Positions 421 to 22,726 of a stretch of 64,000 nt of DNA are shown here, piece after piece. The stretch covers positions 64,001-128,000 of the forward strand of contig JBEKTQ010000004.1 of assembly GCA_049515895.1 (NCBI GenBank), given 5' to 3'. Made by a program: the position numbers and the translations under genes. The notes beneath the pieces are model-generated. The model ran no database searches, was not told the DNA's origin, and worked only from the letters and a program-made list of their open reading frames with translations. This DNA comes from Candidatus Bathyarchaeia archaeon. Lineage in GTDB: Archaea > Thermoproteota > Bathyarchaeia > Bathyarchaeales > Bathycorpusculaceae. Every line of letters begins with the position of its first letter. Within the stretch, counting starts at the first letter, position 1.

Positions 421-581
421 AAAAGTTGCGTAAGACGAAAAGAGGAAAGCTCGGAGCTGAATTCTGACGCAGTCCTCGTTCAAATTCCGTCCTGTGGTTC
501 GTGATCTACAAATGGCTGTTTTTGAGTTAGTTTTATTAGCAGTTGCAATTGATATTGCTTGGAAAAAAGAGAGGAGAAAAT

Positions 582-1955
582 TTGAACAAGAAAATACTGG
601 CATTAATTGTAGCCATAATCATAATCGTTTCGACCATTGCAGCAGTAGAGCTAATTCAACCAGCAGCATCACCTAACGCACGGTCAATAAATATAGGCTT
701 AGTTGCTCCGATATCGAAATCACCTGTTGGAACTGACATGCAGAGGGCAGCAGAACTTGCTGTAAACGAAATTAACCAAAATGGCGGCGTCTACGTATCA
801 AGTTGGCATACTCACGTAAATATCACTCTAACGCCCGTTGACACAATCGATGACTCTCCAGGCAACGCAGTAACTCCGGTAACGCAAGCAGTAACATCGG
901 AAAAAGTTGATATGCTCATAGGAGGATATGGAAGCGCAGGAACTCTTGCTGACGAAGTCGTAGCAATCAACAACAAGGTCCCATTCATAATTACAGGCGC
1001 CTCAAACCGACTTGTAACCACAAGAGGACCACAAGGCAACTACGGCGGCCTTGGCGCAACCGCAGCCAACAGCATAACTGACGCGGACGGAATGAGTTAC
1101 GTATTCCACTATTGTACTACCACTTACGACTATACCAAAACAATAGTTGACTTCTTTGCCACGCAAATGAAGCCGATGGTAGCAGCTAACCGCAACTTCA
1201 ACCTTGCAATATTCTACCGAAACGACGCCTTCGGGCAGGGCGTTGACCAAGCAGCTAAATACTGGATACAAAATGAAAGCCTACCCATTAACATCGTAGC
1301 AGAAAGGAATTACGACCCCAACACCGTTAACTATCAAACCGACCTTACAGTAGTTCAAGCAGCAAAGCCAGATGCAGTCATTGTCGCGGATAACCCAGAT
1401 AAAACGCCATTAATAATTCAGCAAGGCTGGAACGATGTTGGACTGAAAACAGTTTACATGGCAATCGAAAACAATCAGGACCCAACATTCTACTCGCTTT
1501 TGGAAAGCAGCGGCAGCGGAAATGGGCAACTCTTGGAATCAAAAATGGATCCCTTCATGATACCCTCATACTCAACGGCGGTGCAGACGTACTCTAAAGA
1601 GTTCTACGCTAAATATGGTGTTTACCCTGGAATGATGGGTGCTGACACATACGACGCGTTTTACATTGCTAAAGCCGCAATCGAAAGTGCAGGAACGGTG
1701 GACAAAGCTTCAGTACGAACAGCTATAGAAGGCACCAACATGAACCAAAGGCTCGTTATGACACAAAACTGCAAAATACAATTCAGTTCGGGCGTTGACT
1801 GGCACCAGATAAAACCAGTGACTTTCATTGAACAACTTGTTTTGAACTCAACCTCGAACAAGCTAGAGTCGCAAATAGTTTGGTCACCGACTCCCATAAC
1901 AAACTTTACGCCTTCGACCTTCACTCTGCCAGCAGGCTACAAATCCGGAAGCTAA
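582..1955 (+). CDS. Branched-chain amino acid/aryl acid ABC transporter substrate-binding protein (LivK/LivJ-like)
   Basis: N-terminal hydrophobic anchor, IGLVAPIS, ELAVNEIN..GGV, type I periplasmic-binding fold features. TTG at 582 follows GAGGAG (ORF track start is 543). Confidence 0.85.
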   Translation: MNKKILALIVAIIIIVSTIAAVELIQPAASPNARSINIGLVAPISKSPVGTDMQRAAELAVNEINQNGGVYVSSWHTHVNITLTPVDTIDDSPGNAVTPVTQAVTSEKVDMLIGGYGSAGTLADEVVAINNKVPFIITGASNRLVTTRGPQGNYGGLGATAANSITDADGMSYVFHYCTTTYDYTKTIVDFFATQMKPMVAANRNFNLAIFYRNDAFGQGVDQAAKYWIQNESLPINIVAERNYDPNTVNYQTDLTVVQAAKPDAVIVADNPDKTPLIIQQGWNDVGLKTVYMAIENNQDPTFYSLLESSGSGNGQLLESKMDPFMIPSYSTAVQTYSKEFYAKYGVYPGMMGADTYDAFYIAKAAIESAGTVDKASVRTAIEGTNMNQRLVMTQNCKIQFSSGVDWHQIKPVTFIEQLVLNSTSNKLESQIVWSPTPITNFTPSTFTLPAGYKSGS

Positions 1956-2075
1956 ACGAGCTTCCTCCAAACTTTTCTTTTTATTTTTCCCTCAGTCAGA
2001 TATATTTTAAATAGTCAAGTACCGTTATTTCTCCAAGTGCCAACCGTTTGAGGGGAATTACATAAAGGGGTTCAC

Positions 2076-2954
2076 ATGGACATAACCGCAGGAACAATTC
2101 TTTTGACCTTGGTTTGGGGAATAGCGGTTGGCTGCATCTACATGCTGCTTGCAAGTGGACTAAACATCATTTTCGGAGTAATGAAGCTCGTGAACTTTGC
2201 GCATGGACAACTTCTAATGATTGGAGCCTACGCCACATGGGCTATCTCAGTTGCTTCAGGTTTGAACGCCTACGAAGCTATCTTTATTTCAATGGCCTTA
2301 GTTGCTGCTCTCGGCGTTGTTGTTGAAAGGCTAACTTTCCGCAAAGTTCTCGGGACCGAGAAACTAAACGAGATTTTTGTCAGCCTTGGATTGATTTACA
2401 TTTTTGAGAACGCTGCCTTGCTTTTATGGGGCGATCAATCACAACGCATTGTCAGTCCTTTTGCTGGACTAAGTTTTGATTTAACGGCTTTCTCCATCAC
2501 GTACGACCGAGTTGTTGCTATGATTGTTGTGGTCGCGATTTTGGTTGCTTTCGGATGGTTAATCTACAGAACAAAGATTGGATTAGCAATGCGAGCGACA
2601 AGCCAACGAAATGTCACGGCTTCGCTTATGGGCATTAACATAGAGAGAATCTACATGATTACTTTTGCCTTAGGCTCAGCTATGGCAGCTGCAGCAGGAG
2701 GATTATACGGCATTATCTTCACCTTCAATTCCCAAAGCGGAGCGATGCCAACAATCATTGCTTTTGCAATAATTATTCTTGGGGGTTTGGGAAGCATTAG
2801 AGGAGCAATTGTAGGAGGTTTGCTTTACGGTATCGCGGAACAAATGGCGACCTTGTTTCTAGGGGGAATATGGGCAAGTGCTGTCGCTTTTGCCCTTCTG
2901 ATCGCTGTCCTTATTATCAAACCTAACGGATTATTCGGCGAGAAAGGAGAATGA
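2076..2954 (+). CDS. livH: ABC transporter permease LivH
   Basis: LASGLNIIFGVMKLVNFAHG, GLAMRATSQ, IILGGLGSIRGAIVGG, KPNGLFG. Confidence 0.9.
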   Translation: MDITAGTILLTLVWGIAVGCIYMLLASGLNIIFGVMKLVNFAHGQLLMIGAYATWAISVASGLNAYEAIFISMALVAALGVVVERLTFRKVLGTEKLNEIFVSLGLIYIFENAALLLWGDQSQRIVSPFAGLSFDLTAFSITYDRVVAMIVVVAILVAFGWLIYRTKIGLAMRATSQRNVTASLMGINIERIYMITFALGSAMAAAAGGLYGIIFTFNSQSGAMPTIIAFAIIILGGLGSIRGAIVGGLLYGIAEQMATLFLGGIWASAVAFALLIAVLIIKPNGLFGEKGE

Positions 2955-2955
2955 C

Positions 2956-4020
2956 ATGCCAAGCAAACAGAAAGTTGCCACGTTCCTGCGTTCAAAAGGC
3001 TTCCAGATTTTGCTTATTTCATTCGCTATCTTAGCGCTAATTCCAGTCTTGATACGGGATAGTTTCTTCTTGTTTGTTTTTACTCTAATTTTTATCTTCG
3101 CGATTTACGCAGCAAGCTGGAATTTTCTGTCCAATTCGGGGCAAGGTTCCCTGGGTCATGCTGCTTTCCTAGGGATAGGCGGCTTCGCCTCCGCCATCAT
3201 TGGATCGAGACTTTCCGTTGCAATAATCATAACCCTGAAAGTGGATACAATGCCAATTGGAGCCTTGTCGGTGCTTCTCCAGATCATGGTGCTTCTTTTA
3301 GGCGGTTTACTTTCAGCGGGAATCGGTTTACTAATCGGTTTGGCTTGCGTCCGGTTGAAAGCTTGGTATCTGGCAATGGTCACGTTCGGTTTTTCAGTCA
3401 TAATTAACACCCTTTCAAGCCAATTCGATTCTTTCACCAACGGGATATATGGATTTGCCCCTGCGATATTTGTTCCAAGTGGCTTTCCGTTTTACATTTT
3501 GGTCATTTCTTTCGCCGTGCTTTCCATCGGGATCATGCACGCTGTAATGAAGTCTCGAATGGGATTGGCGTTCCGAGCCATACACGGTAACGAGGCTGAG
3601 GCAAAAATGATCGGCATTAACACCCCAAAGTACAAGCTCATAGCCTTTACCATCAGCACATTTTTCGCTGGCATTGCTGGTGGATTATATGTTTACTTTA
3701 TTCGGTTTGTGGATAACTCTATTTTTTCGCCTGCTAACTCATTTTTACCGCTAATAATGTCTGTTATCGGCGGTCTGGGAACTGTAAGCGGACCAGTAAT
3801 CGGCTCAATTTTCTTGACATCCGTAGGGCAGATTCTTACAACGCAGCCCGTTACTCAAGGGCTAAGTAATACGCTGGGACCGTTCTTCCCTAAGGTCGGC
3901 TATGTTGGACCGCCGCTGACCTACCTTTTCATAGGTGTCATTCTAATAGCGATTGTTGTTTTCAGTCCGAAAGGGCTAGAATCGCTGTTCCGTAAATTTT
4001 ACAAATACCTCGTTTCCTAA
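2956..4020 (+). CDS. livM: ABC transporter permease LivM
   Basis: SGQGSLGHAAFLGIG, YLAMVT, GLAFRAIH, IGGLGTVSGP; abuts livH. Confidence 0.9.
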   Translation: MPSKQKVATFLRSKGFQILLISFAILALIPVLIRDSFFLFVFTLIFIFAIYAASWNFLSNSGQGSLGHAAFLGIGGFASAIIGSRLSVAIIITLKVDTMPIGALSVLLQIMVLLLGGLLSAGIGLLIGLACVRLKAWYLAMVTFGFSVIINTLSSQFDSFTNGIYGFAPAIFVPSGFPFYILVISFAVLSIGIMHAVMKSRMGLAFRAIHGNEAEAKMIGINTPKYKLIAFTISTFFAGIAGGLYVYFIRFVDNSIFSPANSFLPLIMSVIGGLGTVSGPVIGSIFLTSVGQILTTQPVTQGLSNTLGPFFPKVGYVGPPLTYLFIGVILIAIVVFSPKGLESLFRKFYKYLVS

Positions 4021-4078
4021 AAAAATCGCGCGAATAACTTGTTACATCTGCCATTCTTTTACTTGAAATTAGAAGTTT

Positions 4079-4525
4079 TCATTGAAAATACTTTTTGATT
4101 TCTTCAAGCGACAGAACGGCAACGTCATTTGCGGCTAACACTTGCTCTGTTTTTTCAACATTGCTGGTGCGCATGATCAACGCGATTTTGCCGTCGACAT
4201 GTACAGCTGAAGAATAAGCGTATTCGATGTTGATGCTCCCGTCGCCCAGAATCTTTGTTATTTTCGATAGAGTATCTTTCTCAGACATGAAGACAGCTGT
4301 TACTTCCGTGTTCTTCTTGGATTTAGCAAGGTTGAAATCTGCGTCTTCCAAGAACTTTGCCGCTTTGGCCGGGTCTTCAGTCACCAATCTCACTAGACCA
4401 AACTCGCCTGCGTCCGCAATTGATAGGGCGAAAACTTTCAGTTTGTTGCGGTCAAGCTGCGACATAACGTCAAAAAGGGACCCTGGATGATTGTCCAGGA
4501 AAACGCTTACTTGAGTTATTGGCAA
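4079..4525 (-). CDS. Double ACT-domain protein (family usually linked to paaK/ior)
   Basis: QVSVFLDNHPGSL, ALSIADAGEFGLVRL, INIEYAYS. Confidence 0.85.
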   Translation of the reverse strand: MPITQVSVFLDNHPGSLFDVMSQLDRNKLKVFALSIADAGEFGLVRLVTEDPAKAAKFLEDADFNLAKSKKNTEVTAVFMSEKDTLSKITKILGDGSINIEYAYSSAVHVDGKIALIMRTSNVEKTEQVLAANDVAVLSLEEIKKYFQ

Positions 4526-4683
4526 TCTCTACACCGATACCAAATAGTAGCAAATAATATTTAACTTTAACCAAGCTTCAACCATTCAACGACCACAAAT
4601 GAGACGAAATAAAAATAGTCTCTGTTTTTACCAAACCTTATATTTCGAATTTGATTATTTCTTGCTAATCGGAGACAGCAATT

Positions 4684-5421
4684 TTGCTAAGGTGTACCGA
4701 AGTCTCAAAACGTTTTGGGGGACTTCAAGCATTAAAAAATATAGATTTGACAGTTAACAGCAACGAAATCGCTGGACTAGTCGGACCTAACGGCTCCGGC
4801 AAATCAACGCTTCTAAACCTTATCAGCGGCGTATACAAGCCTGACGCGGGAAAAATATTTTTCTTAAACGAAGACATTTCAAAGCTTCCTCCGTACAAGA
4901 TTTGCGCTAGGGGCATCACCAAAACCGCTCAAACCGTTCAATCATTTCCAGAAATGACCGCGGTTGAAAACGTGTTAACAAGCTTACTTTTCAATGAGAA
5001 AAAAACTGAGAAAAAAATTGATGTGAATTCAAAAGCAAAGGCGCTCTTGGAATTTGTTGACTTAAGTAAAGAGAAATTTGATGTTAAAGCAAAAAACCTC
5101 AATGTAGTCGAGTTAAGGCGCATTCAACTTGCCAAAGCTTTGGCAACCGCCCCTAAACTGCTTCTTTTGGATGAGCTACTTACTGGTTTAACTCCTGCAG
5201 AATGCGATGAAGCGACTGCACTGATTAAGCAGATCAACAAGCAAGGCGTGACAGTTCTTATCGTTGAACATGTTATGCGGGTAGTAATGGGGCTGTGTGA
5301 CCGCGTAGTTGTCTTGCATCATGGCGAGAAAATCTGCGAGGGAACGCCCGAACATGTGTGCAGCGATGAAAAAGTGGTGAAGGTTTACTTAGGCAAGAAG
5401 TTCCAGATAAGCGAGGAGTAA
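4684..5421 (+). CDS. livG: ABC transporter ATP-binding protein LivG
   Basis: Walker A GPNGSGKST, LLLLDE, VEHVM, C-terminal VYLG. Confidence 0.9.
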   Translation: MLRCTEVSKRFGGLQALKNIDLTVNSNEIAGLVGPNGSGKSTLLNLISGVYKPDAGKIFFLNEDISKLPPYKICARGITKTAQTVQSFPEMTAVENVLTSLLFNEKKTEKKIDVNSKAKALLEFVDLSKEKFDVKAKNLNVVELRRIQLAKALATAPKLLLLDELLTGLTPAECDEATALIKQINKQGVTVLIVEHVMRVVMGLCDRVVVLHHGEKICEGTPEHVCSDEKVVKVYLGKKFQISEE

Positions 5422-5423
5422 AA

Positions 5424-6128
5424 GTGTTAGAAACACAGAATTTGTCATCAGCATATGGAATGGTGCAAATACTGCACGACGTATCTTTCAAAGTTGAAGA
5501 AAAAGAGATTGTCAGCATCATTGGTCCTAACGGCGCCGGAAAAACAACTCTTGTAAAAACAATAATGGGTTTCATCCCTTCAAAGAATGGGACAATCAAG
5601 TTCAAAGGCGAAAACATTGGTAAATTACATCCATACGAGATAGTTAAGAAGGGAATCACAATGATTCCTGAGGGTAGAGAAATTTTTCCACGTATGACTG
5701 TTGAAGAAAACATGCGGTTGGGCGCTTATACAATGAAGGACAAAGATAAGATTAAGGAAACCATGGAGAAAGTCTTTCAGATTTTTCCTGTGCTGAAAAA
5801 GAAGGAAAAATCGTTGGCTCAAACGCTTAGTGGAGGGGAGCAGCAAATGCTTGTCATTTGTCGAAGTCTAATGTGTAATCCTCAAATGCTGATTTTGGAT
5901 GAACCTTCATTGGGATTGGCGCCAATCATCGTGGAGAAGGTGTTGGACACTATTCGAACTATCAACGATGAAGGCGTGACCATTTTGCTTGTTGAACAAA
6001 ACATTCAAGATTCATTGGACATTGCGGATAGAGGCTATGTTCTCGAGGAAGGAAGAATTGTTTTGGAAGGAAAAAGCAGGGAACTCTTATCCAATAATTA
6101 TATAAAACAAGTGTACTTGGGCCTTTGA
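5424..6128 (+). CDS. livF: ABC transporter ATP-binding protein LivF
   Basis: GPNGAGKTT, PEGREIF, LSGGEQQML, LDEPSLGLAP, VEQN. Confidence 0.92.
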   Translation: MLETQNLSSAYGMVQILHDVSFKVEEKEIVSIIGPNGAGKTTLVKTIMGFIPSKNGTIKFKGENIGKLHPYEIVKKGITMIPEGREIFPRMTVEENMRLGAYTMKDKDKIKETMEKVFQIFPVLKKKEKSLAQTLSGGEQQMLVICRSLMCNPQMLILDEPSLGLAPIIVEKVLDTIRTINDEGVTILLVEQNIQDSLDIADRGYVLEEGRIVLEGKSRELLSNNYIKQVYLGL

Positions 6129-8238: not shown

Positions 8239-8601
8239 TCACTTCTTAAAAGCTAATCCTGTGAAGAAAGCCACCATCTTCTCTCCGCTCTTAACTCTCA
8301 CTTGATACAAACCAGTGGTTTTTCCATCAGAAACCCGATCTGCCTCAGCCGTTAACACGTCTCCCTCAACCGACGGCTTCAAAAAGTTGATGCTTACCTG
8401 AACCGCGACTGCAACGTTTTCGCCGTAATTGCATGCATGTGCGAAGGCGTAGTCTGCCAGCGAGAAGATTGCACCGCCGTGCGTAAAGCCCAACGCGTTG
8501 GTGTGGTTTTTCTCAACTTTCATCGTTACTTTAGCATAGCCATCTTTGGCTTCAACCAGCTGAATTCCCAGTGCATCTGCAAAATGGTCTCTTCCTCTCA
8601 T
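8239..8601 (-). CDS. paaI: PaaI-family hot-dog thioesterase
   Basis: NALGFTHGGAIFSLAD motif; near paaK. Confidence 0.85.
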   Translation of the reverse strand: MRGRDHFADALGIQLVEAKDGYAKVTMKVEKNHTNALGFTHGGAIFSLADYAFAHACNYGENVAVAVQVSINFLKPSVEGDVLTAEADRVSDGKTTGLYQVRVKSGEKMVAFFTGLAFKK

Positions 8602-11328: not shown

Positions 11329-12648
11329 ATGGCAGACGGAACATACTGGAACAAAAGAGTTGAAACCATGCCTGCTCAAGAATTAAAGAAACGTCAGCTT
11401 GAAGAGCTGAAAAGGCTGGCAAAGCATTGTTATGAGAATAGTTCTTTTTACAAGAAAAGACTTGACAGCGTAGGATTAAAACCTGAAAGCATACATTCAC
11501 TTGACGATCTCACAAAGATTCCCTTCACAGTCAAGAGCGATTTGAAAGACAATTATCCTTTTGGGATGGTCGCCGCTAAATCTGACGAGATAGTGGAGAT
11601 TCATGCTTCAAGTGGAACAACTGGAAACCCCATAGTCGGAGCATACACTCAACATGACATTGATGTTTGGCAAGAACTTATGGCTAGGTCAATCTACGTA
11701 GCAGGCGGAAGACGCCAAGATACAATACACATCGCCTATGGCTACGGTTTGTTCACCGGCGGCTTCGGTTTTCATTACGGCGCTCAAAAAATTGGGGCGA
11801 AAATTGTTCCTGCAAGCGGCGGGATGACTCAACGTCAAATAAAGCTCATGAAAGATTTGGGCGTCACGATTCTGGCTTGCACCCCAAGCTTCGCGGTTTA
11901 TCTGGCTGAAACTATGGCTCAAGAAGGCGTTGACCCGAAGAAAGACCTTAAACTTAAAATTGGGATGTTTGGGGCAGAGCCTTGGTCCGACAAGATAAGG
12001 GAAAGAATAGAGAACGAGTTAGGCATTAATGCTTTTGACGTTTACGGGTTAACCGAGCTTTGTGGTCCAGGCGTTGCCATTGAATGCGCTGAGCATAAGG
12101 GACTTCACATTTGGGAAGACCATTTTATCGTGGAAACCATTGATTCTGACACAGGCGAGGTTTTGCCTGCCGGCGAGGAAGGAGAATTGGTCTTTACTGG
12201 CTTGACGAAAATGGGGCTTCCGATGCTTAGGTACCGGACCCGAGACATATCGAAGGTAGAAACGGAAAAATGCGCCTGCGGACGGACCCATGCCAGGATG
12301 ATGCGTGTTCAAGGTAGGTCAGATGACATGCTGATTATTCGTGGAGTAAACGTGTTCCCATCGCAAATCGAATACGCGGTAATGTGTTTCTCGGAGCTTG
12401 CCGCTCAATACGTGATTATTGTCGACAGACCAGGCGCCTTAGATACGTTTGTTGTTAAGGTTGAATTATCTGAGAAAGCAGCTAAAGATCCCAAAGTAGA
12501 TACGAACGCGTTGAAAAACAGCATTCAAAAGCAAATTCATATAGTAACGGGTATCTCCGCTGACGTTGAAATTGTGAAGCCGGGTGAGCTTCCGAGGACT
12601 GAGGGAAAAGCAAAAAGGGTTCTGGACTTACGCAAAGGCAAAATGTAA
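11329..12648 (+). CDS. paaK: Phenylacetate-CoA ligase
   Basis: HASSGTTGNP, YGYGLFTGG, DVYGLTE, RYRTRD, GRSDDMLIIRGVNVFP, GKAKRVLD. Confidence 0.92.
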   Translation: MADGTYWNKRVETMPAQELKKRQLEELKRLAKHCYENSSFYKKRLDSVGLKPESIHSLDDLTKIPFTVKSDLKDNYPFGMVAAKSDEIVEIHASSGTTGNPIVGAYTQHDIDVWQELMARSIYVAGGRRQDTIHIAYGYGLFTGGFGFHYGAQKIGAKIVPASGGMTQRQIKLMKDLGVTILACTPSFAVYLAETMAQEGVDPKKDLKLKIGMFGAEPWSDKIRERIENELGINAFDVYGLTELCGPGVAIECAEHKGLHIWEDHFIVETIDSDTGEVLPAGEEGELVFTGLTKMGLPMLRYRTRDISKVETEKCACGRTHARMMRVQGRSDDMLIIRGVNVFPSQIEYAVMCFSELAAQYVIIVDRPGALDTFVVKVELSEKAAKDPKVDTNALKNSIQKQIHIVTGISADVEIVKPGELPRTEGKAKRVLDLRKGKM

Positions 12649-12660
12649 AGGACTAAACCT

Positions 12661-14850
12661 ATGACTTCCAAAATTGCTGTAGATAAGCCGGGCGATTTTG
12701 CCTTGCTTAACGGCGATGAAGCAGTTGCTAGAGGCGCTGTTGAAGCCTCCGTCAAAGTAGCCGCTTCTTACCCCGGAACACCCGCTACCGAAATTTTGGA
12801 AACCCTAGCTGAAGTATCAAAAGAATTTGACATCTACGCAGAATGGAGCATAAACGAGATTGTTGCCACCGAGGTAGCTGCCGGCGCTTCGATGGCAGGT
12901 GTTCGCTCTATTGTTTCAATGAAACATGTTGGCCTAAACGTTGCCTCGGATGCGGCCATGACATTGGCATACACTGGAGTTGAGGGTGGACTGTTAATCG
13001 CTGTCTGTGATGACCCAGCTTTGCATAGCAGCCAAAACGAGCAGGACACAAGATATTTTGCGGTTCATTCGAAGTTGCCTTTGCTGGATGCGGGAAATCC
13101 GCAGGAAGCCTTGGATATGGCTAGAGAAGCGTTTGAATTAAGCGAAAGGCTGCATTTGCCAGTTATCTTGCGTTTGACGACAAGGGTTGCTCATGGGAAG
13201 GCTCGAGTGAGACTTGGTCGGTTGCATAAGTTGAGTCGAAAAGCTGATTTTGATAAACAAGGTTCAAAATGGGTAATGGTTCCGGCTAACGCAATTCGGC
13301 AGCACAGAGTCTTAGAAGTAAAGATGGCAGAAACAAAAACACTTGTTAATCATTCAAAGTTTAATGTGATTGAAGATAATGCGAGCGACATAGGAATTAT
13401 AGGAAGTGGAGTAGGTTACTATTATGCCCGTTCAGTGCTCGACACGAAAAAGTTTTCTTGGTTAAAGCTAGGTTTCGTTCATCCTTTTCCTCAGGAGATT
13501 GTTGAAAGATTTGCGCTCAAAGTAAAAAAACTCATAATAATTGAGGAGCTAAGGCCGTACATTGAAGAAAATATCCAGCGGTTAGGTCTGCAAGCCCTTG
13601 GAAAAAATCAGTTAGGCTTGGAGGAAATTGGCGAGTTAACGCCCGATAATGTACGCCAAGCCTTCGCAAGTTTAGGGTTAACAGCTAAAGCAGAGCCGCA
13701 GGAATCATTGAACTTGCAGCCAAGACCACCCAATCTTTGCCCAGGCTGTCCTCACAGAGCTTTTTATTATGCCCTAAACATGGTAAATCAGCATGTTAAC
13801 TGTGACAACGACAAATGCGTCGGCTGTGACATTTGCGAGTACGTTTGCTCTTTTGAGAAGGAGGGAGTTTTTAACCCGCTTAAGTCGCGTATCCGCTCGG
13901 TGAGGCTTGGTCAAGTTTTCAACACCGCGATAACATGCAAAGCCTGCATTGACGCCCCATGCATTACCGCTTGCCCGGAAAAAGCTCTGGCGCGGTCAAA
14001 TAAAAGCGGAGCTATCATGGTCGACCAAGAAAAATGCAAGGGCTGCCCATGGTGCATCGAAGCATGTGAGTTCGGCGCAGTTACGGTCAACTCGCGCACA
14101 CGTAAAGCCATAATATGCGACACATGCAGCGGGGAACCCAAATGCATTCCTTTTTGCCCCGAGGGAGCTTTGAGCTTATCTGGAAAATCAAACGACAAAA
14201 TCGTTACAGGCGACATCGGCTGCTACACGCTTGGTGTTTTGCCGCCTGTCAACACGGTTCAAACGTGCTTGTGTATGGGGGCTGGGATTTCCCAGGCTGC
14301 AGGAATGTTTCATGCTGGTGTAAAGGATAAGGTGTTCTCGGTTATCGGTGACTCGACGTTTTTCCACGCGGGTATGCCTGGGTTGATGAATATAGTGTAT
14401 AACAGGGCTAACGTATGCGTGGTCATCATGGATAATAGCACGGTTGCGATGACGGGGCATCAGCCTACGCCTGGCTCGGGAAAAACAGCGATGGGAGCGG
14501 ACGCTAAAATCCTGAAGCTGGTAGACGTTGCTAAGGGGCTTGGAATAGACAAAGTGGCGGTTGTTGACCCGTATGATATTGAAGGCACAATTTCATCTCT
14601 AAGGAAAATTATTGATTACGATGGTCCATCTGTCATCATTTCACAGAGACCCTGCCCCCTTTTGATTGAAAGAGGCAAGCCTAGGGAAACCACGGATAAG
14701 TGTAATGACTGCGAGGTTTGCACGAAAGCTTTCGGCTGCCCCGCCATCTACAAAGTAAACGGACAAGTTGAGATAGATTCATCGCTCTGCTACGGATGCG
14801 GCGTCTGCGAAGTCGTCTGCCCCTTTGAAGCGATTAGGAGGAAAGAATGA
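12661..14850 (+). CDS. iorA: Indolepyruvate:ferredoxin oxidoreductase alpha subunit with an inserted 4x[4Fe-4S] domain
   Basis: YPGTP, MKHVGLNVA, SSQNEQD, RPPNLCPGCPHR, GDIGCYTLG, IGDSTFFH, AMTGHQ, C-terminal 2[4Fe-4S]; extra ~130-aa Cys-rich insert. Confidence 0.93.
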   Translation: MTSKIAVDKPGDFALLNGDEAVARGAVEASVKVAASYPGTPATEILETLAEVSKEFDIYAEWSINEIVATEVAAGASMAGVRSIVSMKHVGLNVASDAAMTLAYTGVEGGLLIAVCDDPALHSSQNEQDTRYFAVHSKLPLLDAGNPQEALDMAREAFELSERLHLPVILRLTTRVAHGKARVRLGRLHKLSRKADFDKQGSKWVMVPANAIRQHRVLEVKMAETKTLVNHSKFNVIEDNASDIGIIGSGVGYYYARSVLDTKKFSWLKLGFVHPFPQEIVERFALKVKKLIIIEELRPYIEENIQRLGLQALGKNQLGLEEIGELTPDNVRQAFASLGLTAKAEPQESLNLQPRPPNLCPGCPHRAFYYALNMVNQHVNCDNDKCVGCDICEYVCSFEKEGVFNPLKSRIRSVRLGQVFNTAITCKACIDAPCITACPEKALARSNKSGAIMVDQEKCKGCPWCIEACEFGAVTVNSRTRKAIICDTCSGEPKCIPFCPEGALSLSGKSNDKIVTGDIGCYTLGVLPPVNTVQTCLCMGAGISQAAGMFHAGVKDKVFSVIGDSTFFHAGMPGLMNIVYNRANVCVVIMDNSTVAMTGHQPTPGSGKTAMGADAKILKLVDVAKGLGIDKVAVVDPYDIEGTISSLRKIIDYDGPSVIISQRPCPLLIERGKPRETTDKCNDCEVCTKAFGCPAIYKVNGQVEIDSSLCYGCGVCEVVCPFEAIRRKE

Positions 14851-15440
14851 TGAATCGTCTCGACACAGTTTTCAGCGGCGTCGGTGGACAGGGAGTTGTA
14901 GTTTTAAGCGATATTTTCTGTGAAGCCGCAATACTGGAAGGATTTGATGTAGCGAAGGCTGAAATTCATGGGATGGCGCAGCGGGGCGGTTCAATAGTTG
15001 CTTACGCGAGAATAGGCAATAAAGTTGAGTCGCCAATGATTGAAACTGGGAAGGCTGATGTTCTAGTGGGTTTTGAGGTTCTCGAGGCTGCGAGGGCTTC
15101 GCCGATGCTTAAGCGGGGCGGCGATGTAATTGTTAATATGAAGTATATTCAGCCTTGTATCACTGGCTCAGACGTGAAGCCTAAGAAGGCGGATGAGCTG
15201 ATGCAGATTTTGAGGGAGAAAGCGCAGGTGCATGAAGTTGACGGGGCAGGCATCGCTGAGAAGCTTGGGAACTTGTTGGTTGTGAATACAATTCTGCTAG
15301 GGGCGCTCTCAGCACTTCCTGAAGTCCCGGTTAAGGCAGAGTCGTTCAAGCTTGCTATCGCAGGCAGGCTTAGAGAAAAATACATCAACGTGAACTTAAA
15401 GGCGTTTAAAATGGGCAGAGACAGCGTTCAACCTAGCTAA
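14847..15440 (+). CDS. iorB: Indolepyruvate:ferredoxin oxidoreductase beta subunit
   Basis: GVGGQG, EIHGMAQRGGS, NTILLGAL, NLKAF; overlaps the iorA stop. Confidence 0.93.
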   Translation: MMNRLDTVFSGVGGQGVVVLSDIFCEAAILEGFDVAKAEIHGMAQRGGSIVAYARIGNKVESPMIETGKADVLVGFEVLEAARASPMLKRGGDVIVNMKYIQPCITGSDVKPKKADELMQILREKAQVHEVDGAGIAEKLGNLLVVNTILLGALSALPEVPVKAESFKLAIAGRLREKYINVNLKAFKMGRDSVQPS

Positions 15441-19177: not shown

Positions 19178-19681
19178 TTAACTTGTTTTTTCTGTCGGTT
19201 TTTGGAGCAGCTTTCTAATGGCGCTGATTCTTGCTTTTTGAGCTAGTGTATCGCTAGTGACAAGGGTCAATGCTTCTTCAGGGCACCATTTGACGCATTG
19301 GGGTCCGTCGGGTTTGTCTTTGCAGAGGTCGCAGACGTAGACCACTTTGGTTTCGGGATGCAGCATTATGGCGCCGTAGTCGCATGCTTCGATGCACCAT
19401 CCGCAGCCGTTGCATTTGTCCTTGTCAAGGACAATGTTTCCGGTATCCTCTGACTGTGTGAGTGCATTTTTTGGACAAGCCGCTACGCACGCTGGGGCCT
19501 CGCAGAGCCTGCATGTAACTGACATGTTGGCGACTTGGTTAACGCGGACAACGCGTATGCGTGATTTAAGGGGGTTGAATGCTTTTTCTTTGGTGAATGA
19601 GCAGGCGTATTCGCAGATTTGGCAGCCTACACATTTTTCCGGGTCAACTGAAACGAATTTTCTTTCGCGAGTTTTGACCAT
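19178..19681 (-). CDS. 4x[4Fe-4S] electron-transfer subunit (DmsB/HydN-like) of AOR
   Basis: 16 Cys in four cluster motifs; 2 nt downstream of aor. Confidence 0.9.
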   Translation of the reverse strand: MVKTRERKFVSVDPEKCVGCQICEYACSFTKEKAFNPLKSRIRVVRVNQVANMSVTCRLCEAPACVAACPKNALTQSEDTGNIVLDKDKCNGCGWCIEACDYGAIMLHPETKVVYVCDLCKDKPDGPQCVKWCPEEALTLVTSDTLAQKARISAIRKLLQKPTEKTS

Positions 19682-19683
19682 TT

Positions 19684-21540
19684 TTAATCCTCTTTTCCTT
19701 CAACTATGCCTGATAAATCTTCCAGTCCAAGCTTGGTGAGCACATCTTTTGTGGGTACTCCTTCAAGCGTCCAGTTGCGTGACAGGTAATAGTCATCGAG
19801 AAGCAAGTCAAGCTCCTCCTGAGTTACCACGGAGCCTTTTCCTGGGCCATCATCAGTTATTGGTTGGTTCATGACTTTCCACGGCAACGTGTCGTCTTTG
19901 CGACTTAATCCTTCCCGGATGTTAATTAGCCGCGCAAGATTGTTTATCCGTTCGCCTGCAAGGCTTAGCTCCTGCGGAGTCATCTCGTACCCCGTTACCA
20001 GAGTGTAAAGCTTAGCCATGTCAGGCAACTCCTTGTACAGGGTGCCTCTAGCGTTCTTGCAGATAATGAGTGAATCAATTAAAGCGTAAATATCTTCGGA
20101 ATCTTTGACCAGTTTGCCTCGGCCTTTTTCAGCTTTAAAACGGTCAACTTTACCCGATATATCAAACGCATACGCGCCGCTGCGGTTGTGGTCAGCTCCA
20201 CGGAAGGAAACTGCAAACCCTAAAGCAGCGGTTTTCAAGCATCTTAAATCGTAGCCTGTGACTTCCAACCCCTTGATGTTCTGAGCAAGCTTATCAGAGC
20301 CTTTGCCGATTTTCGCTGCTGCTGCTTTCGCCCCATCAGCCAAGACCTCGCCGATTCCCTCTCGTTTGCCTATTTTCTCAATTAGCTGCAAGAGGGCTTC
20401 TGCGTTTCCAAAATGAGCGTCAATTCCATCAAGCTCCTCATGTGATAAGATGCCTTTTTCATGACAATCCATTACGAAACTGACCGTCACACCCGTGCTT
20501 GTCGCATCTAAACCATAATAATTGCAGAGGTCACTGGCTTTGATTATTGCGTCAAGCTTATCGACACCGCAGTTCGGGCCGAGTGCCCAGATGTTATCGT
20601 ATTCCATGCGTGCCATGGTTCCTTTGTATGGCCCATCATGGATAACGGCTTCATGCTCGCACCGCATTGCGCATGAGTTGCAAGCGATTATTTTCGCGAC
20701 GTATCTTTCGTTTAGAGTTTCACCGCTTACTTTTTCAGCGTTATCAAAATATGAGTTATTGTAGTTGCGTGTGGGCAAGCAGTGTAGTGCGTTTAGAATC
20801 ATAACGTTTTCTGCTGACCCCAATGTTCGGTATTTTTGCGCTGCTGGTCCTTTCATTCTTTCATGAAACTCCTTGACCATCTCAATAAATTCTTCAGGCT
20901 TAGCGACAACAATGTCTTTGGTTCCCCGCACAGCGATGGCTTTTAGGTTCTTTGACCCCATGACTGCGCCAAGGCCTGTTCTTCCAGCTGCGCGGGTTTT
21001 CTCGTTTGTTATGTTGGCGATTTTGGACTGTTTTTCGCCTGCCAAACCAATGGAGGCAACGCGCACGTAGTAGTCCCCAAGTTCCTCTTTAACTGCGTCT
21101 TCGGTTTCGGAGGGCGATTTACCCCAAATTTTTTCTGCATCAAGTAACTGGACTGAATCATCATCTATCCAAAGGTAAACGGGTCTTTCGGCTTTCCCAG
21201 TTAGAATTATAGCGTCGTAGCCAGCTCTTTTTATTTCTGCTCCGAAGGTGCCGTGGCTTACTGCCTCACCGACACCGCCCGTTTCAGGTGATTTTGAAAT
21301 GAACGCGTGTCCATTCCCGCCCGTCGGGAACATAGTTCCTGAAACTGGACCCACTGCTAGAACCAGCGGGTTTTCAGGATTGAATGGGTCAACGCCTGCT
21401 TTTGAGTTGGCTAGCCAAAGTTTCATGCCTAAGCCTATGCCGCCAATGTATTTTTTGGCTGTTTCCTCGTCTAGTTTCTCCATAGTTATTTTGCCTATGG
21501 ATAAGTTAACGCGTAGAACCCTTCCTGCGTAACCGAGCAA
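19684..21540 (-). CDS. aor: Tungsten-dependent aldehyde:ferredoxin oxidoreductase
   Basis: GYAGRVLRVNLS, KSPETG, AAGRTGLGAVMGSKNLKAI, CNSCAMRC, EYDN, CNYYGLD, DSLIIC. Confidence 0.93.
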   Translation of the reverse strand: MLGYAGRVLRVNLSIGKITMEKLDEETAKKYIGGIGLGMKLWLANSKAGVDPFNPENPLVLAVGPVSGTMFPTGGNGHAFISKSPETGGVGEAVSHGTFGAEIKRAGYDAIILTGKAERPVYLWIDDDSVQLLDAEKIWGKSPSETEDAVKEELGDYYVRVASIGLAGEKQSKIANITNEKTRAAGRTGLGAVMGSKNLKAIAVRGTKDIVVAKPEEFIEMVKEFHERMKGPAAQKYRTLGSAENVMILNALHCLPTRNYNNSYFDNAEKVSGETLNERYVAKIIACNSCAMRCEHEAVIHDGPYKGTMARMEYDNIWALGPNCGVDKLDAIIKASDLCNYYGLDATSTGVTVSFVMDCHEKGILSHEELDGIDAHFGNAEALLQLIEKIGKREGIGEVLADGAKAAAAKIGKGSDKLAQNIKGLEVTGYDLRCLKTAALGFAVSFRGADHNRSGAYAFDISGKVDRFKAEKGRGKLVKDSEDIYALIDSLIICKNARGTLYKELPDMAKLYTLVTGYEMTPQELSLAGERINNLARLINIREGLSRKDDTLPWKVMNQPITDDGPGKGSVVTQEELDLLLDDYYLSRNWTLEGVPTKDVLTKLGLEDLSGIVEGKED

Positions 21541-21746: not shown

Positions 21747-22058
21747 ATGGTTGTAGCAGAGGGTCAAAAAATGAAAGTTAAAGTTCACTACTTAAGCCTG
21801 GTCAAGAGCTTCACTAAGACAGGCCAAGATGAATTCGATCTAAACCAAGATGTGGCGCTGTCGGATTTGCTATGCGACGTCGCTGAAAAATATGGGAAAC
21901 CCTTCACGCAAGAGGTTTACGACCCAACTAAAAAAGAGATGAAGTCAACATTCGTGACCATGGTTAACGGTGTCTTAATGGATCAACTGCAAGGTATCAA
22001 CACGCCACTTAAAGACGGTGACAACATAATTATAATGTCTCTTATGACAGGCGGCTAA
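21747..22058 (+). CDS. MoaD/ThiS ubiquitin-like sulfur carrier (SAMP-like)
   Basis: VNG...LKDGD, C-terminal GG; divergent from aor. Confidence 0.88.
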   Translation: MVVAEGQKMKVKVHYLSLVKSFTKTGQDEFDLNQDVALSDLLCDVAEKYGKPFTQEVYDPTKKEMKSTFVTMVNGVLMDQLQGINTPLKDGDNIIIMSLMTGG

Positions 22059-22087: not shown

Positions 22088-22726
22088 GTGAACGGCATGG
22101 TTAAAGTCGAAAAATCCAAATCTGTCTATTGGCTGGATAACAAACTTTACTTGAACATTACCAACCGCTGCTCTAACCGCTGCTTTTTCTGTCTCAAAAA
22201 TTTCAAGCAAGGTGTAGGCGGCTTCAGCCTAAAACTCGTTGCGGAACCGAGTTTCGAACAGATTATAGACGAACTTAAAGGGGTGCTGGGCACGCGAAAT
22301 TGGGCTGAAGCGGTTTTCTGCGGCTTCGGGGAGCCGACAGAGCGGCTTGATGTTTTGTTGATGGTTGCGCGTTGGATTAGGCAGCATTATGGCAAGCCGC
22401 TTAAGATACGACTAAACACGAATGGACATGGCTCAGTGATTAACAGAGGCAGGGATGTGTCTGCTGAGTTGAGGGCAGCAGGGGTTGACAAGGTGAGCGT
22501 TAGCTTGAACGCTGGGGATAAGGAAACGTATGAGCAGGTTTGTAAGCCAACCTTCGAGGGAGCTTACGAGGCAATTATAGAGTTTATACGGAAAGCTAAG
22601 CCCTTTTTACAGATAGAGGCTACTGCGGTCAGACTGCCTGAGGTTGACTTAGCTAAGGCAAAGGCGGTTGCGGACGAGTTGGGCGTCGGCTTTAGAGTTC
22701 GAGAGTATATTCCTTGCTTTTACTAG
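22088..22726 (+). CDS. TatD-associated radical SAM protein
   Basis: LYLNITNRCSNRCFFC (CxxxCxxC), VFCGFGEPT, RLNTNG, SVSLNA. Confidence 0.85.
   Translation: MNGMVKVEKSKSVYWLDNKLYLNITNRCSNRCFFCLKNFKQGVGGFSLKLVAEPSFEQIIDELKGVLGTRNWAEAVFCGFGEPTERLDVLLMVARWIRQHYGKPLKIRLNTNGHGSVINRGRDVSAELRAAGVDKVSVSLNAGDKETYEQVCKPTFEGAYEAIIEFIRKAKPFLQIEATAVRLPEVDLAKAKAVADELGVGFRVREYIPCFY

Follow-up and report, generated by a model that had tools for sequence, protein, structure and literature searches.

A WorS/AorA-type iron-sulfur subunit captured inside IorA of a Bathyarchaeia lineage, and its possible use as a built-in electron wire

What does a copy of an aldehyde oxidoreductase subunit do in the middle of an indolepyruvate oxidoreductase? 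The question is raised by a 64,000-nucleotide stretch of DNA (hereafter the window) from Candidatus Bathyarchaeia archaeon (assembly GCA_049515895.1, contig JBEKTQ010000004.1, positions 64,001 to 128,000). Its iorA gene (12661-14850, forward strand) encodes the 729-residue alpha subunit of indolepyruvate:ferredoxin oxidoreductase (IOR), and this protein bears an iron-sulfur domain in its interior. A first-pass annotation had read the insert as a copy of the electron-transfer subunit that accompanies tungsten-type aldehyde:ferredoxin oxidoreductase (AOR), and had proposed that it hard-wires IOR to AOR. We find that the insert was captured once, anciently, from an AOR-linked small subunit of the WorS/AorA type. 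As to its present role, we give a probability of roughly 0.55 to the reading that it is a domesticated accessory electron-transfer branch of IOR, in an enzyme with seven predicted clusters, and not a dock for AOR.

The insert comprises residues 378–511 of IorA, i.e. 134 residues in frame (window 13792-14193), of which the interval first reported, 13792-14185, takes in 131. It is placed between CPGCPHRAFYYAL and IVTGDIGC, and so between two residues that we take to be ligands of the [4Fe-4S] cluster next to thiamine diphosphate (TPP), hereafter the proximal cluster. The CPGCPH motif (13738-13755, forward strand), 15 residues ahead of the insert, holds C360 and C363, presumably two of these ligands, judging by 2-oxoacid:ferredoxin oxidoreductases (OFORs) as a family. 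The GDIGC motif (14209-14223, forward strand), 10 residues past it, holds the next putative ligand, C521. In our alignments, ordinary IorAs have about 4–20 residues between the two flanking motifs, in line with the earlier remark that these normally lie a few residues apart. The 134 residues contain 16 Cys in four groups (CxxCxxCxxxC, CxxCx4CxxxCP, CxxCxxCxxxC, and CxxCx5CxxxCP) and a 17th, C381 (13801-13803), five residues upstream of the first cluster motif.

Compared by BLASTP with a 167-residue free small subunit of the WorS/AorA type encoded in the same window (19178-19681, reverse strand), the insert aligns end to end, at 51% identity (67/131) with 3 gapped positions and an E-value of 2e-50. 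This identity is far above chance expectation, and all 16 cluster Cys are present in both; the first-pass estimate, about half identical with all 16 Cys kept, was thus accurate. Neither the N-terminal strand motif nor the C-terminal helix of the free subunits is present in the insert, whose terminus, CPEGALSLSGKSN, passes directly into IorA. Among 69 full-length insert-bearing IorAs, the window's own counted, all 17 Cys are invariant, while the inserts themselves span 44–100% identity (mean pairwise 62.6%). Insert length is 133–135 residues in 66 of 70 sequences examined. C381 is also a distinguishing mark of the inserted form: it is present in 69/69 inserts, while 17/20 free subunits have A, V, or S at the same position and only 2/20 have C.

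The protein around the insert is an IorA. It scores 693.8 bits against the NCBIfam equivalog TIGR03336 (cut-off 650.9), in two matched stretches with a break at residue 376, and it matches Pfam POR_N (1.8e-18), TPP_enzyme_C (1.7e-22), and the Fer4 families. It is also the sole IorA of this genome. The C-terminal 2x[4Fe-4S] ferredoxin domain that is usual for IorA is retained (14677-14841, forward strand; Pfam Fer4 and Fer4_10 at residues 674–726), with C681, C684, C687, C693, C710, C713, C716, and C720. These eight Cys and the four proximal ones (C360, C363, C521, and C665) are present in all 79 insert-bearing rows of our IorA alignment (A3) and in 93–100% of its 30 insert-less rows; C360 and C363 are Cys in every row of both kinds, and D518, G520, and C521 are invariant in A3 and in a second alignment (A1). 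Since the proximal Cys and the C-terminal two-cluster domain are both kept, the insert adds a second chain and replaces nothing. By motif count, IorA is predicted to hold 1 + 2 + 4 = 7 clusters, which agrees with the "up to 7" proposed earlier. Two further Cys of the IorA core, C116 and C586, are lineage-specific and invariant, and are kept also in an insert-less homologue (P0121) described below.

Is this architecture real, and how widely is it found? A 2706-base contig from a run of another study covers 13639-14500 with zero differences, and contigs from two additional runs extend over the 5' junction (13587-13828) and the 3' junction (14054-14278). Contigs of other studies' runs showed no form in which the flanks join directly. 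Both junctions are thus supported by independent runs, and together with the recurrence of the architecture in the many IorAs counted above, this identifies the insert as a lineage-fixed feature and not an assembly artefact.

A junction-spanning query returned 6816 proteins at E <= 0.001. The best 120 of these cover the full query at 73–89% identity, are mostly 729–732 residues long, and are named, where a name is given, as IOR alpha subunit or TPP-dependent enzyme of Bathyarchaeia. When the whole protein is used as query against a library with one representative per 50% cluster, 144 of the best 150 matches end their best matched stretch at residue 370–389, and none of the 150 matches across query residues 390–510; an alignment with seven such representatives has a short linker at the position of the insert. 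The insert is absent from the other IorAs examined. A search of the ESM Atlas gave scores of 0.80–0.83, which are leads only; the top cluster, of 286 residues with Fer4_11 and a TPP domain, probably represents fragments of the insert-bearing IorA family.

Within the phylum, the distribution is narrow. Matches spanning both junctions are found in 18 of 401 genomes sampled across it, all in the window's order (18 of its 47 sampled genomes, and 0 of 354 elsewhere). Specifically, they are found in 10 of 11 genomes of the window's genus, 6 of 15 others of its family, and 2 of 21 others of its order. In a second sample, of 61 genomes from the same order, 12 carry an insert-type IorA (72–100% identical in the N-terminal part), 18 carry an ordinary IorA that is 41–47% identical and has no insert, and 31 lack any at E <= 1e-30. 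Scanning a single genome for each species yielded 72 related loci, 44 of them with a full 8 kb on each side; nearly all are labelled Bathyarchaeia or Bathyarchaeota, among them Candidatus Bathycorpusculum and isolates whose names contain Bathy6. A full-text literature search, which covered neither subscription journals nor supplementary files, returned no description of an IorA with such an insert.

Where did the insert come from? Its nearest solved relatives (9mqx_E, 6x6u_B/6x1o_B, and 8c0z_C; E 3e-27 to 2e-23) are all small Fe-S subunits of tungsten oxidoreductases, and they rank above HycB, NrfC, DmsB, and similar proteins. In other genomes, the 20 closest free relatives share 52–58% identity with the insert; for 18 of them, an AOR gene on the same strand lies immediately upstream, and the remaining 2 are of an orphan type. 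The local AOR-adjacent homologues are 47–58% identical to it. This genome itself has several free paralogues at 47–52% identity and two more divergent ones; two paralogues adjoin AOR genes (the window's, and one on contig C27), and two are orphans (one on C29 with a long tail, and one at the end of contig C2).

In a tree of 38 sequences (138 columns), the 12 sampled inserts form one clade (98/99) within the radiation of AOR-adjacent subunits of the order, although no exact sister is singled out. A single insert clade among AOR-linked subunits implies one capture event. The view that the insert is a copy of the AOR electron-transfer subunit is thus upheld by identity, by structural neighbours, by the AOR adjacency of its relatives, and by phylogeny. 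The orphan polyferredoxins form a separate clade (100/100) of proteins of about 190–215 residues where complete, none adjoining AOR. Its members are G000:C29:5804-6181 (L003 1297-1932, reverse strand), L004, L036, and L039; three of the four have a long, lysine-rich, probably helical C-terminal tail, and L004 reaches a contig end.

Does the insert still bind AOR? Under the first-pass model, it keeps the AOR-binding face and docks the AOR catalytic subunit on IorA, so that aldehyde oxidation is coupled to aryl-acyl-CoA carboxylation without ferredoxin. Such a model can draw on the descent of the insert from AOR-linked subunits, on the many motifs that the two share, such as FNPLKSRIR and WCIEAC, and on the AOR genes present in every insert-bearing genome. 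In the window, an AOR operon is present 4.3 kb beyond iorAB: the free small subunit introduced above, encoded just downstream of the 618-residue catalytic subunit (19684-21540, reverse strand; Pfam AFOR_N 1e-73 and AFOR_C 7e-122). The genome has 5 AOR genes with this one included, and two of them (on C10, and at C2:96907) have no small-subunit match beside them, a further point in favour of the model.

Gene linkage gives this model no help. No AOR gene or free WorS is found beside iorA in any of the 72 related loci, within the flanks available, and the AOR operon near iorA is a chance neighbour peculiar to the arrangement of the window's genome. AOR is present in 61/61 genomes of the order whether or not they have the insert, so that the co-occurrence of insert and AOR is uninformative. 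The window's AOR has a small subunit of its own. Across the 10 insert-bearing genomes that both searches covered, free small-subunit matches (2–6) are not scarcer than AOR matches (2–5), except in G061 (4 vs 5).

The rates of evolution also speak against docking. Across 2346 pairs, identity averages 62.6% in the insert vs 73.8% in the rest of IorA, and the insert is the lower of the two in 98.9%. By contrast, for the same genome pairs the core of free WorS is 82–84% identical while its AOR is 76% identical, i.e. the free subunit evolves more slowly than its enzyme and the insert faster than its host. Of 124 core columns, 68 are at least 90% conserved in the free subunits vs 49 in the inserts. 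Eleven positions are at least 90% conserved in the 20 free subunits but below 60% in the 69 inserts, often with a change of charge; they are 378, 383, 414, R427, E430, D441, D457, D470, K481, 483, and W498. For example, position 498 is W in 20/20 free subunits and in 13/69 inserts, while position 430 is E in 19/20 free subunits and K in 29/69 inserts. Residues that are nearly invariant where AOR is the partner thus vary freely in IorA, charge reversals included. Moreover, the termini of the insert correspond to the half of WorSL that packs on its catalytic subunit, and they are tied to the IorA core, which probably fills that side.

Taken together, the absent synteny, the missing helix, the faster evolution, the relaxed positions, and a clean loss of the insert in one lineage (below) do not bear out a hard-wired IOR-AOR complex, and we regard docking of the AOR catalytic subunit on IorA as very unlikely. 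In terms of family membership, the insert shares with the WorS/AorA small subunits the four Cys groups (16 Cys invariant, with the structural matches given above), and its predicted fold is of low confidence. It departs from them in being internal to IorA where they are separate polypeptides encoded beside an AOR gene, and in having neither their AOR-linked conserved residues nor their partner-like constraint.

A second way to reach AOR would be through the free subunits. The conserved tail of the window's free subunit (residues 141–167; 19181-19261, reverse strand) carries the motif LAQKARISAVKKLF, and the tail is conserved in all 20 AOR-adjacent subunits (consensus DVLAQKARISAVKKLFQE), with R151 and L158 invariant and six more positions at least 90% conserved; it is missing from the insert. 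AorA and bifurcating WorS use their C-terminal helix to hold the following subunit of the wire (PMC10413684 section 7; PMC12318220 sections 8-9). In such a setting, the insert might cap a (WorS-AOR)n nanowire as its end unit, taking the C-terminal helix of a free WorS and sharing electrons with AOR; lacking such a helix itself, it could act solely as the recipient. The strong conservation of the tail, as in filament-forming AorA and WorS (PMC10413684 section 7; PMC12318220 sections 8-9), is congenial to this idea, as are the groove residues that bind the helix in the WorS of A. mobile: in a hand-mapped alignment, they stay hydrophobic in the insert (V, I, or L at 414 and 416, and Y or F at 471).

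A hydrophobic beta-sheet core does not discriminate, though, and positions 441, 460, and 414, which align with other nanowire contacts of A. mobile WorS, are conserved in the free subunits and relaxed in the insert. Synteny is again absent among the related loci, and filament formation by Bathyarchaeial WorS is itself hypothetical. When full-length IorA (A3) and the free small subunit (alignment A2) were paired in a complex prediction, the score was 0.00 in two runs made without controls, which counts neither for nor against binding. We hold the nanowire end unit to be unlikely. It is equally doubtful that IOR and AOR share one Fe-S chain via the WorS helix, with aldehyde oxidation driving the reductive carboxylation of arylacetyl-CoA in the absence of soluble ferredoxin, or vice versa. 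The C-terminal helix that characterizes nanowire polyferredoxins (AorA, bifurcating WorS, and HycB3/4) is absent from the insert.

The tail of the AOR-adjacent subunits (the window's and 19 homologues, A2) resembles those of filament-forming AorA and WorS in its own right. AORs of this archaeal order may form polyferredoxin wires too, to judge from its helix-like conservation. No cap gene of the AorC or Bfu type is present in the window's AOR operon.

If the insert does not serve AOR, what could it do for IOR? In the reading that we favour, that of an accessory electron-transfer branch, a WorS/AorA copy without its C-terminal helix would have been inserted in frame in the ancestor of one Bathyarchaeia IorA lineage (Bathy-6-type genomes), into the loop between two Cys ligands of the TPP-proximal [4Fe-4S] cluster. 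Within the double-ferredoxin fold, the half that carries the first two clusters would also contain both ends of the insert, tied within about 10–15 residues to the proximal-cluster ligands. From this placement, the four clusters would form a second branch leading from the proximal cluster to a new surface site. In WorSL, it is the fold half holding the first two clusters that packs against the catalytic subunit (PMC12318220 section 8). By analogy, the insert would serve the TPP site of IOR as WorS serves the tungsten site of AOR, and the IorA core probably occupies the side of the insert where AOR would pack. The outer end would exchange electrons with a carrier or partner, either ferredoxin or another redox protein.

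The later history of the insert bears on whether it matters at all. Three loci from three species (L041, L042, and L043) have no insert; their protein (P0121, 607 residues; iorA at 8001-9821 in L041) has a linker of about 20 residues that resembles the edges of the insert (SLKGKPVCKIVTG vs SLSGKSNDKIVTG). We considered these genes as an ancestral sister state and rejected it: in a tree built on the flanks only, they fall deep inside the insert-bearing clade, behind several branches with SH-aLRT of at least 95%. This nesting implies a secondary, clean loss of the insert. The paaK-iorA-iorB operon is intact in all three, and no free small subunit standing in for the insert was found beside their iorA. 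With the operon kept after the loss, IOR evidently works without the insert. In addition, L065 (8001-9956, from a Bathyarchaeota assembly) has a 78-residue in-frame deletion within the insert that starts partway through the first Cys group, extends through the third, and leaves 57 residues with 7 of the 16 cluster Cys and C381; this truncation could be a real variant or an assembly error.

One might conclude that the insert survives as a relic that is tolerated but no longer functions, and the loss, the truncation, and its faster evolution relative to the rest of IorA all go in that direction. Set against them are the 17 Cys that never vary in sequences diverged to 44% identity, the nearly fixed length, and the 49 core columns that stay at least 90% conserved, in view of which we find a functionless relic extremely unlikely. 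The insert might instead serve IOR with no outside partner, as an electron store, a dimer link, an oligomerization element, or a shield for the proximal cluster. Multi-electron storage and cluster shielding have been proposed for AorA wires (PMC10413684), and the invariant Cys, the relaxed surface, and the lack of a conserved partner gene also speak for a self-contained role. A four-cluster chain, however, exceeds what shielding needs, and a role of this kind seems improbable to us overall.

The electron-branch reading has points against it as well. The partner at the outer end is putative, with no conserved gene to match it in the loci compared. AlphaFold2 models IorA well overall from the 109-row alignment (mean pLDDT 84.3, pTM 0.80, core above 90), and the insert poorly (block means 30–73, several stretches below 50); with the insert at such low confidence, cluster-to-cluster distances can be given only conditionally. 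The clean loss in one lineage and the truncation in one genome would also fit a module of little importance. The 20 free subunits are the best matches to the window's insert and are not independent relatives, so that selection bias may account for part of the weaker conservation of the inserts. The text of PMC10413684 gives no residue-level AorA-AorB interface, and any contact of the 11 relaxed positions with AOR is conjectural. Finally, the hydrophobic groove kept in the insert makes contact with a free WorS possible.

How does the insert-bearing enzyme compare with known systems? Canonical IorAB (NCBIfam TIGR03336/TIGR03334) includes the enzymes of Pyrococcus and methanogens. The window's enzyme shares with it POR_N, TPP_enzyme_C, the proximal Cys, the C-terminal 2x[4Fe-4S] domain, an adjacent iorB, and the paaK-iorA-iorB operon, and differs in the 134-residue four-cluster domain of the CPGCPH-GDIGC loop; no IOR structure is present in the copy of the PDB searched. 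With the WorS/AorA small subunits (the WorS of A. mobile in 9mqx_E, the WOR5 small subunit in 6x6u_B/6x1o_B, and AorA in 8c0z_C), the insert shares the double-ferredoxin fold family and the four Cys groups. Unlike them, it is neither free nor encoded with AOR, has no C-terminal helix, has 11 relaxed positions, and carries the extra invariant C381.

A third comparison is with PadI, the beta subunit of the NADH-dependent phenylglyoxylate dehydrogenase PadEFGHI (NCBIfam NF045766), whose added domain is presumed to serve the FAD subunit PadH. The best NCBIfam match of the insert is to positions 9–136 of the 443 in the PadI profile (E 4e-23), and positions 143–428 of that profile match an ordinary OFOR beta subunit. 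The profile thus consists of a WorS-like part and an OFOR beta part, which means that another 2-oxoacid oxidoreductase already bears such a domain near the proximal-cluster region. The two systems have in common an aromatic-substrate 2-oxoacid oxidoreductase with a WorS-like four-cluster domain on the subunit that holds TPP and the proximal cluster. In PadI, that domain is an N-terminal fusion ahead of the beta part; in IorA, it interrupts the beta-like part some 20 residues from its start, past the first two ligands. IorA scores 77.6 bits and the insert 81.8 against a PadI cut-off of 700, and the domain order differs, so that neither falls within that family. The local AOR subunits are nearer to the insert (145 bits pairwise), and its origin is independent of PadI.

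PadI suggests a further alternative, in which the insert wires IOR to a dedicated flavoprotein, as the PadI domain is presumed to do for PadH and as AorA does for AorC, so that IOR would be NAD(P)-linked or bifurcating. Apart from the PadI match and the polyferredoxin-plus-beta composition of that profile, this alternative can point to NuoE-like (12) and NuoF-like (10) genes 7–8 kb upstream of iorA among the 44 long loci. These genes are limited to 10–12 of the 44 and are not beside the window's iorA, although its nearest relative (L075) has them. Furthermore, the widely conserved neighbours include no flavoprotein gene, iorAB has no PadH-like flavoprotein linked to it, and the best PadH-like gene of this genome sits on another contig with a polyferredoxin gene and a glutamine amidotransferase gene. 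We judge a dedicated flavoprotein partner to be distinctly unlikely.

The loci with NuoE/F-like genes are L057, L061, L063, L068, L071, L072, L075, L077, L100-L102, and L104. The separate contig of this genome carries, in a row (G000:C1:179612-183832; L113), a 148-residue polyferredoxin, a 426-residue PadH/AorC-like Pyr_redox_2 flavoprotein (318 bits to NF045765, under its cut-off), and a GATase_2 protein, an arrangement that looks like a split glutamate-synthase-type cluster.

A looser parallel is PorE, a polyferredoxin of the anabolic pyruvate oxidoreductase of methanogens that sometimes co-purifies as a fifth subunit (PMC13768988). As in the present case, a polyferredoxin is dedicated to an OFOR, and the OFOR that PorE serves works reductively and anabolically. 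PorE-type polyferredoxins are unlike the insert in being separate proteins encoded in the por cluster. PadI is the nearest precedent for the insert.

An OFOR with an added polyferredoxin module is therefore a known kind of enzyme, and what is new here is the placement inside IorA and the origin from the subunit of AOR. A whole lineage of archaea abundant in peat, soil, and gut carries an IOR version with seven predicted clusters, and the case is a clear natural example of a redox "wire" module, traceable to an AOR subunit, that has moved between unrelated catalytic platforms. The clean-loss lineage and the truncated copy are natural controls for what the extra cluster chain adds, e.g. in partner choice, direction, or oxygen tolerance. 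If the wire does reach AOR or a flavoprotein, the current view of low-potential electron routing in aromatic amino-acid and aryl-acid metabolism in these archaea would have to be revised.

Directly after iorA, in the window and at every examined locus that reaches that far, is iorB (14847-15440, forward strand), the beta (gamma-type) IOR subunit (Pfam POR PF01558, 3.8e-37; E 8e-57 to the NCBIfam IOR beta models, under their cut-offs). Upstream is a paaK-like phenylacetate-CoA ligase gene (11329-12648, forward strand; TIGR02155, E 1.9e-168, 560 bits, below the cut-off of 646), which is found ahead of iorA in 44 of 45 long loci, a comparison that counts the window. Family membership and this paaK neighbour suggest that the enzyme may act on arylpyruvates.

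The conserved neighbours of iorA across the related loci are livGF, an ACT-domain gene, paaK, iorB, livK, livHM, and a 4HBT thioesterase gene. In the window, the Liv-type ABC transporter genes and the 4HBT thioesterase gene (543-6128 and 8239-8601), which lie close to iorAB in most relatives, are separated from it by genes for CorA, a transglutaminase-like protein, MetRS, and a PHP-domain protein; these intervening genes show that the local gene order has been rearranged. An ADP-forming acyl-CoA synthetase gene (about 936 residues) is found upstream of liv-paaK-iorAB in 18 of the 44 long loci. With AMP-forming and ADP-forming ligases both nearby, the physiological direction of IOR is ambiguous.

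Divergent from the AOR operon of the window and adjoining it are genes for a MoaD-family protein ending in GG (21747-22058, forward strand) and a radical SAM protein (22088-22726, forward strand). The latter scores highest against the TatD-associated type TIGR04038 (209.8 bits), with only a weak match to the tungsten-cofactor maturase TIGR04317 (50.8 bits, cut-off 380). In another family of the phylum, a WorS-like domain is found within a 787-residue open frame (G017:C7:154876-155268). Three AOR matches lie in frames of 837–852 residues (G402:C22:4203-5363, G414:C14:7332-8492, and G053:C68:11313-12473). In these long frames, the small subunit or other domains may have become fused to larger enzymes.

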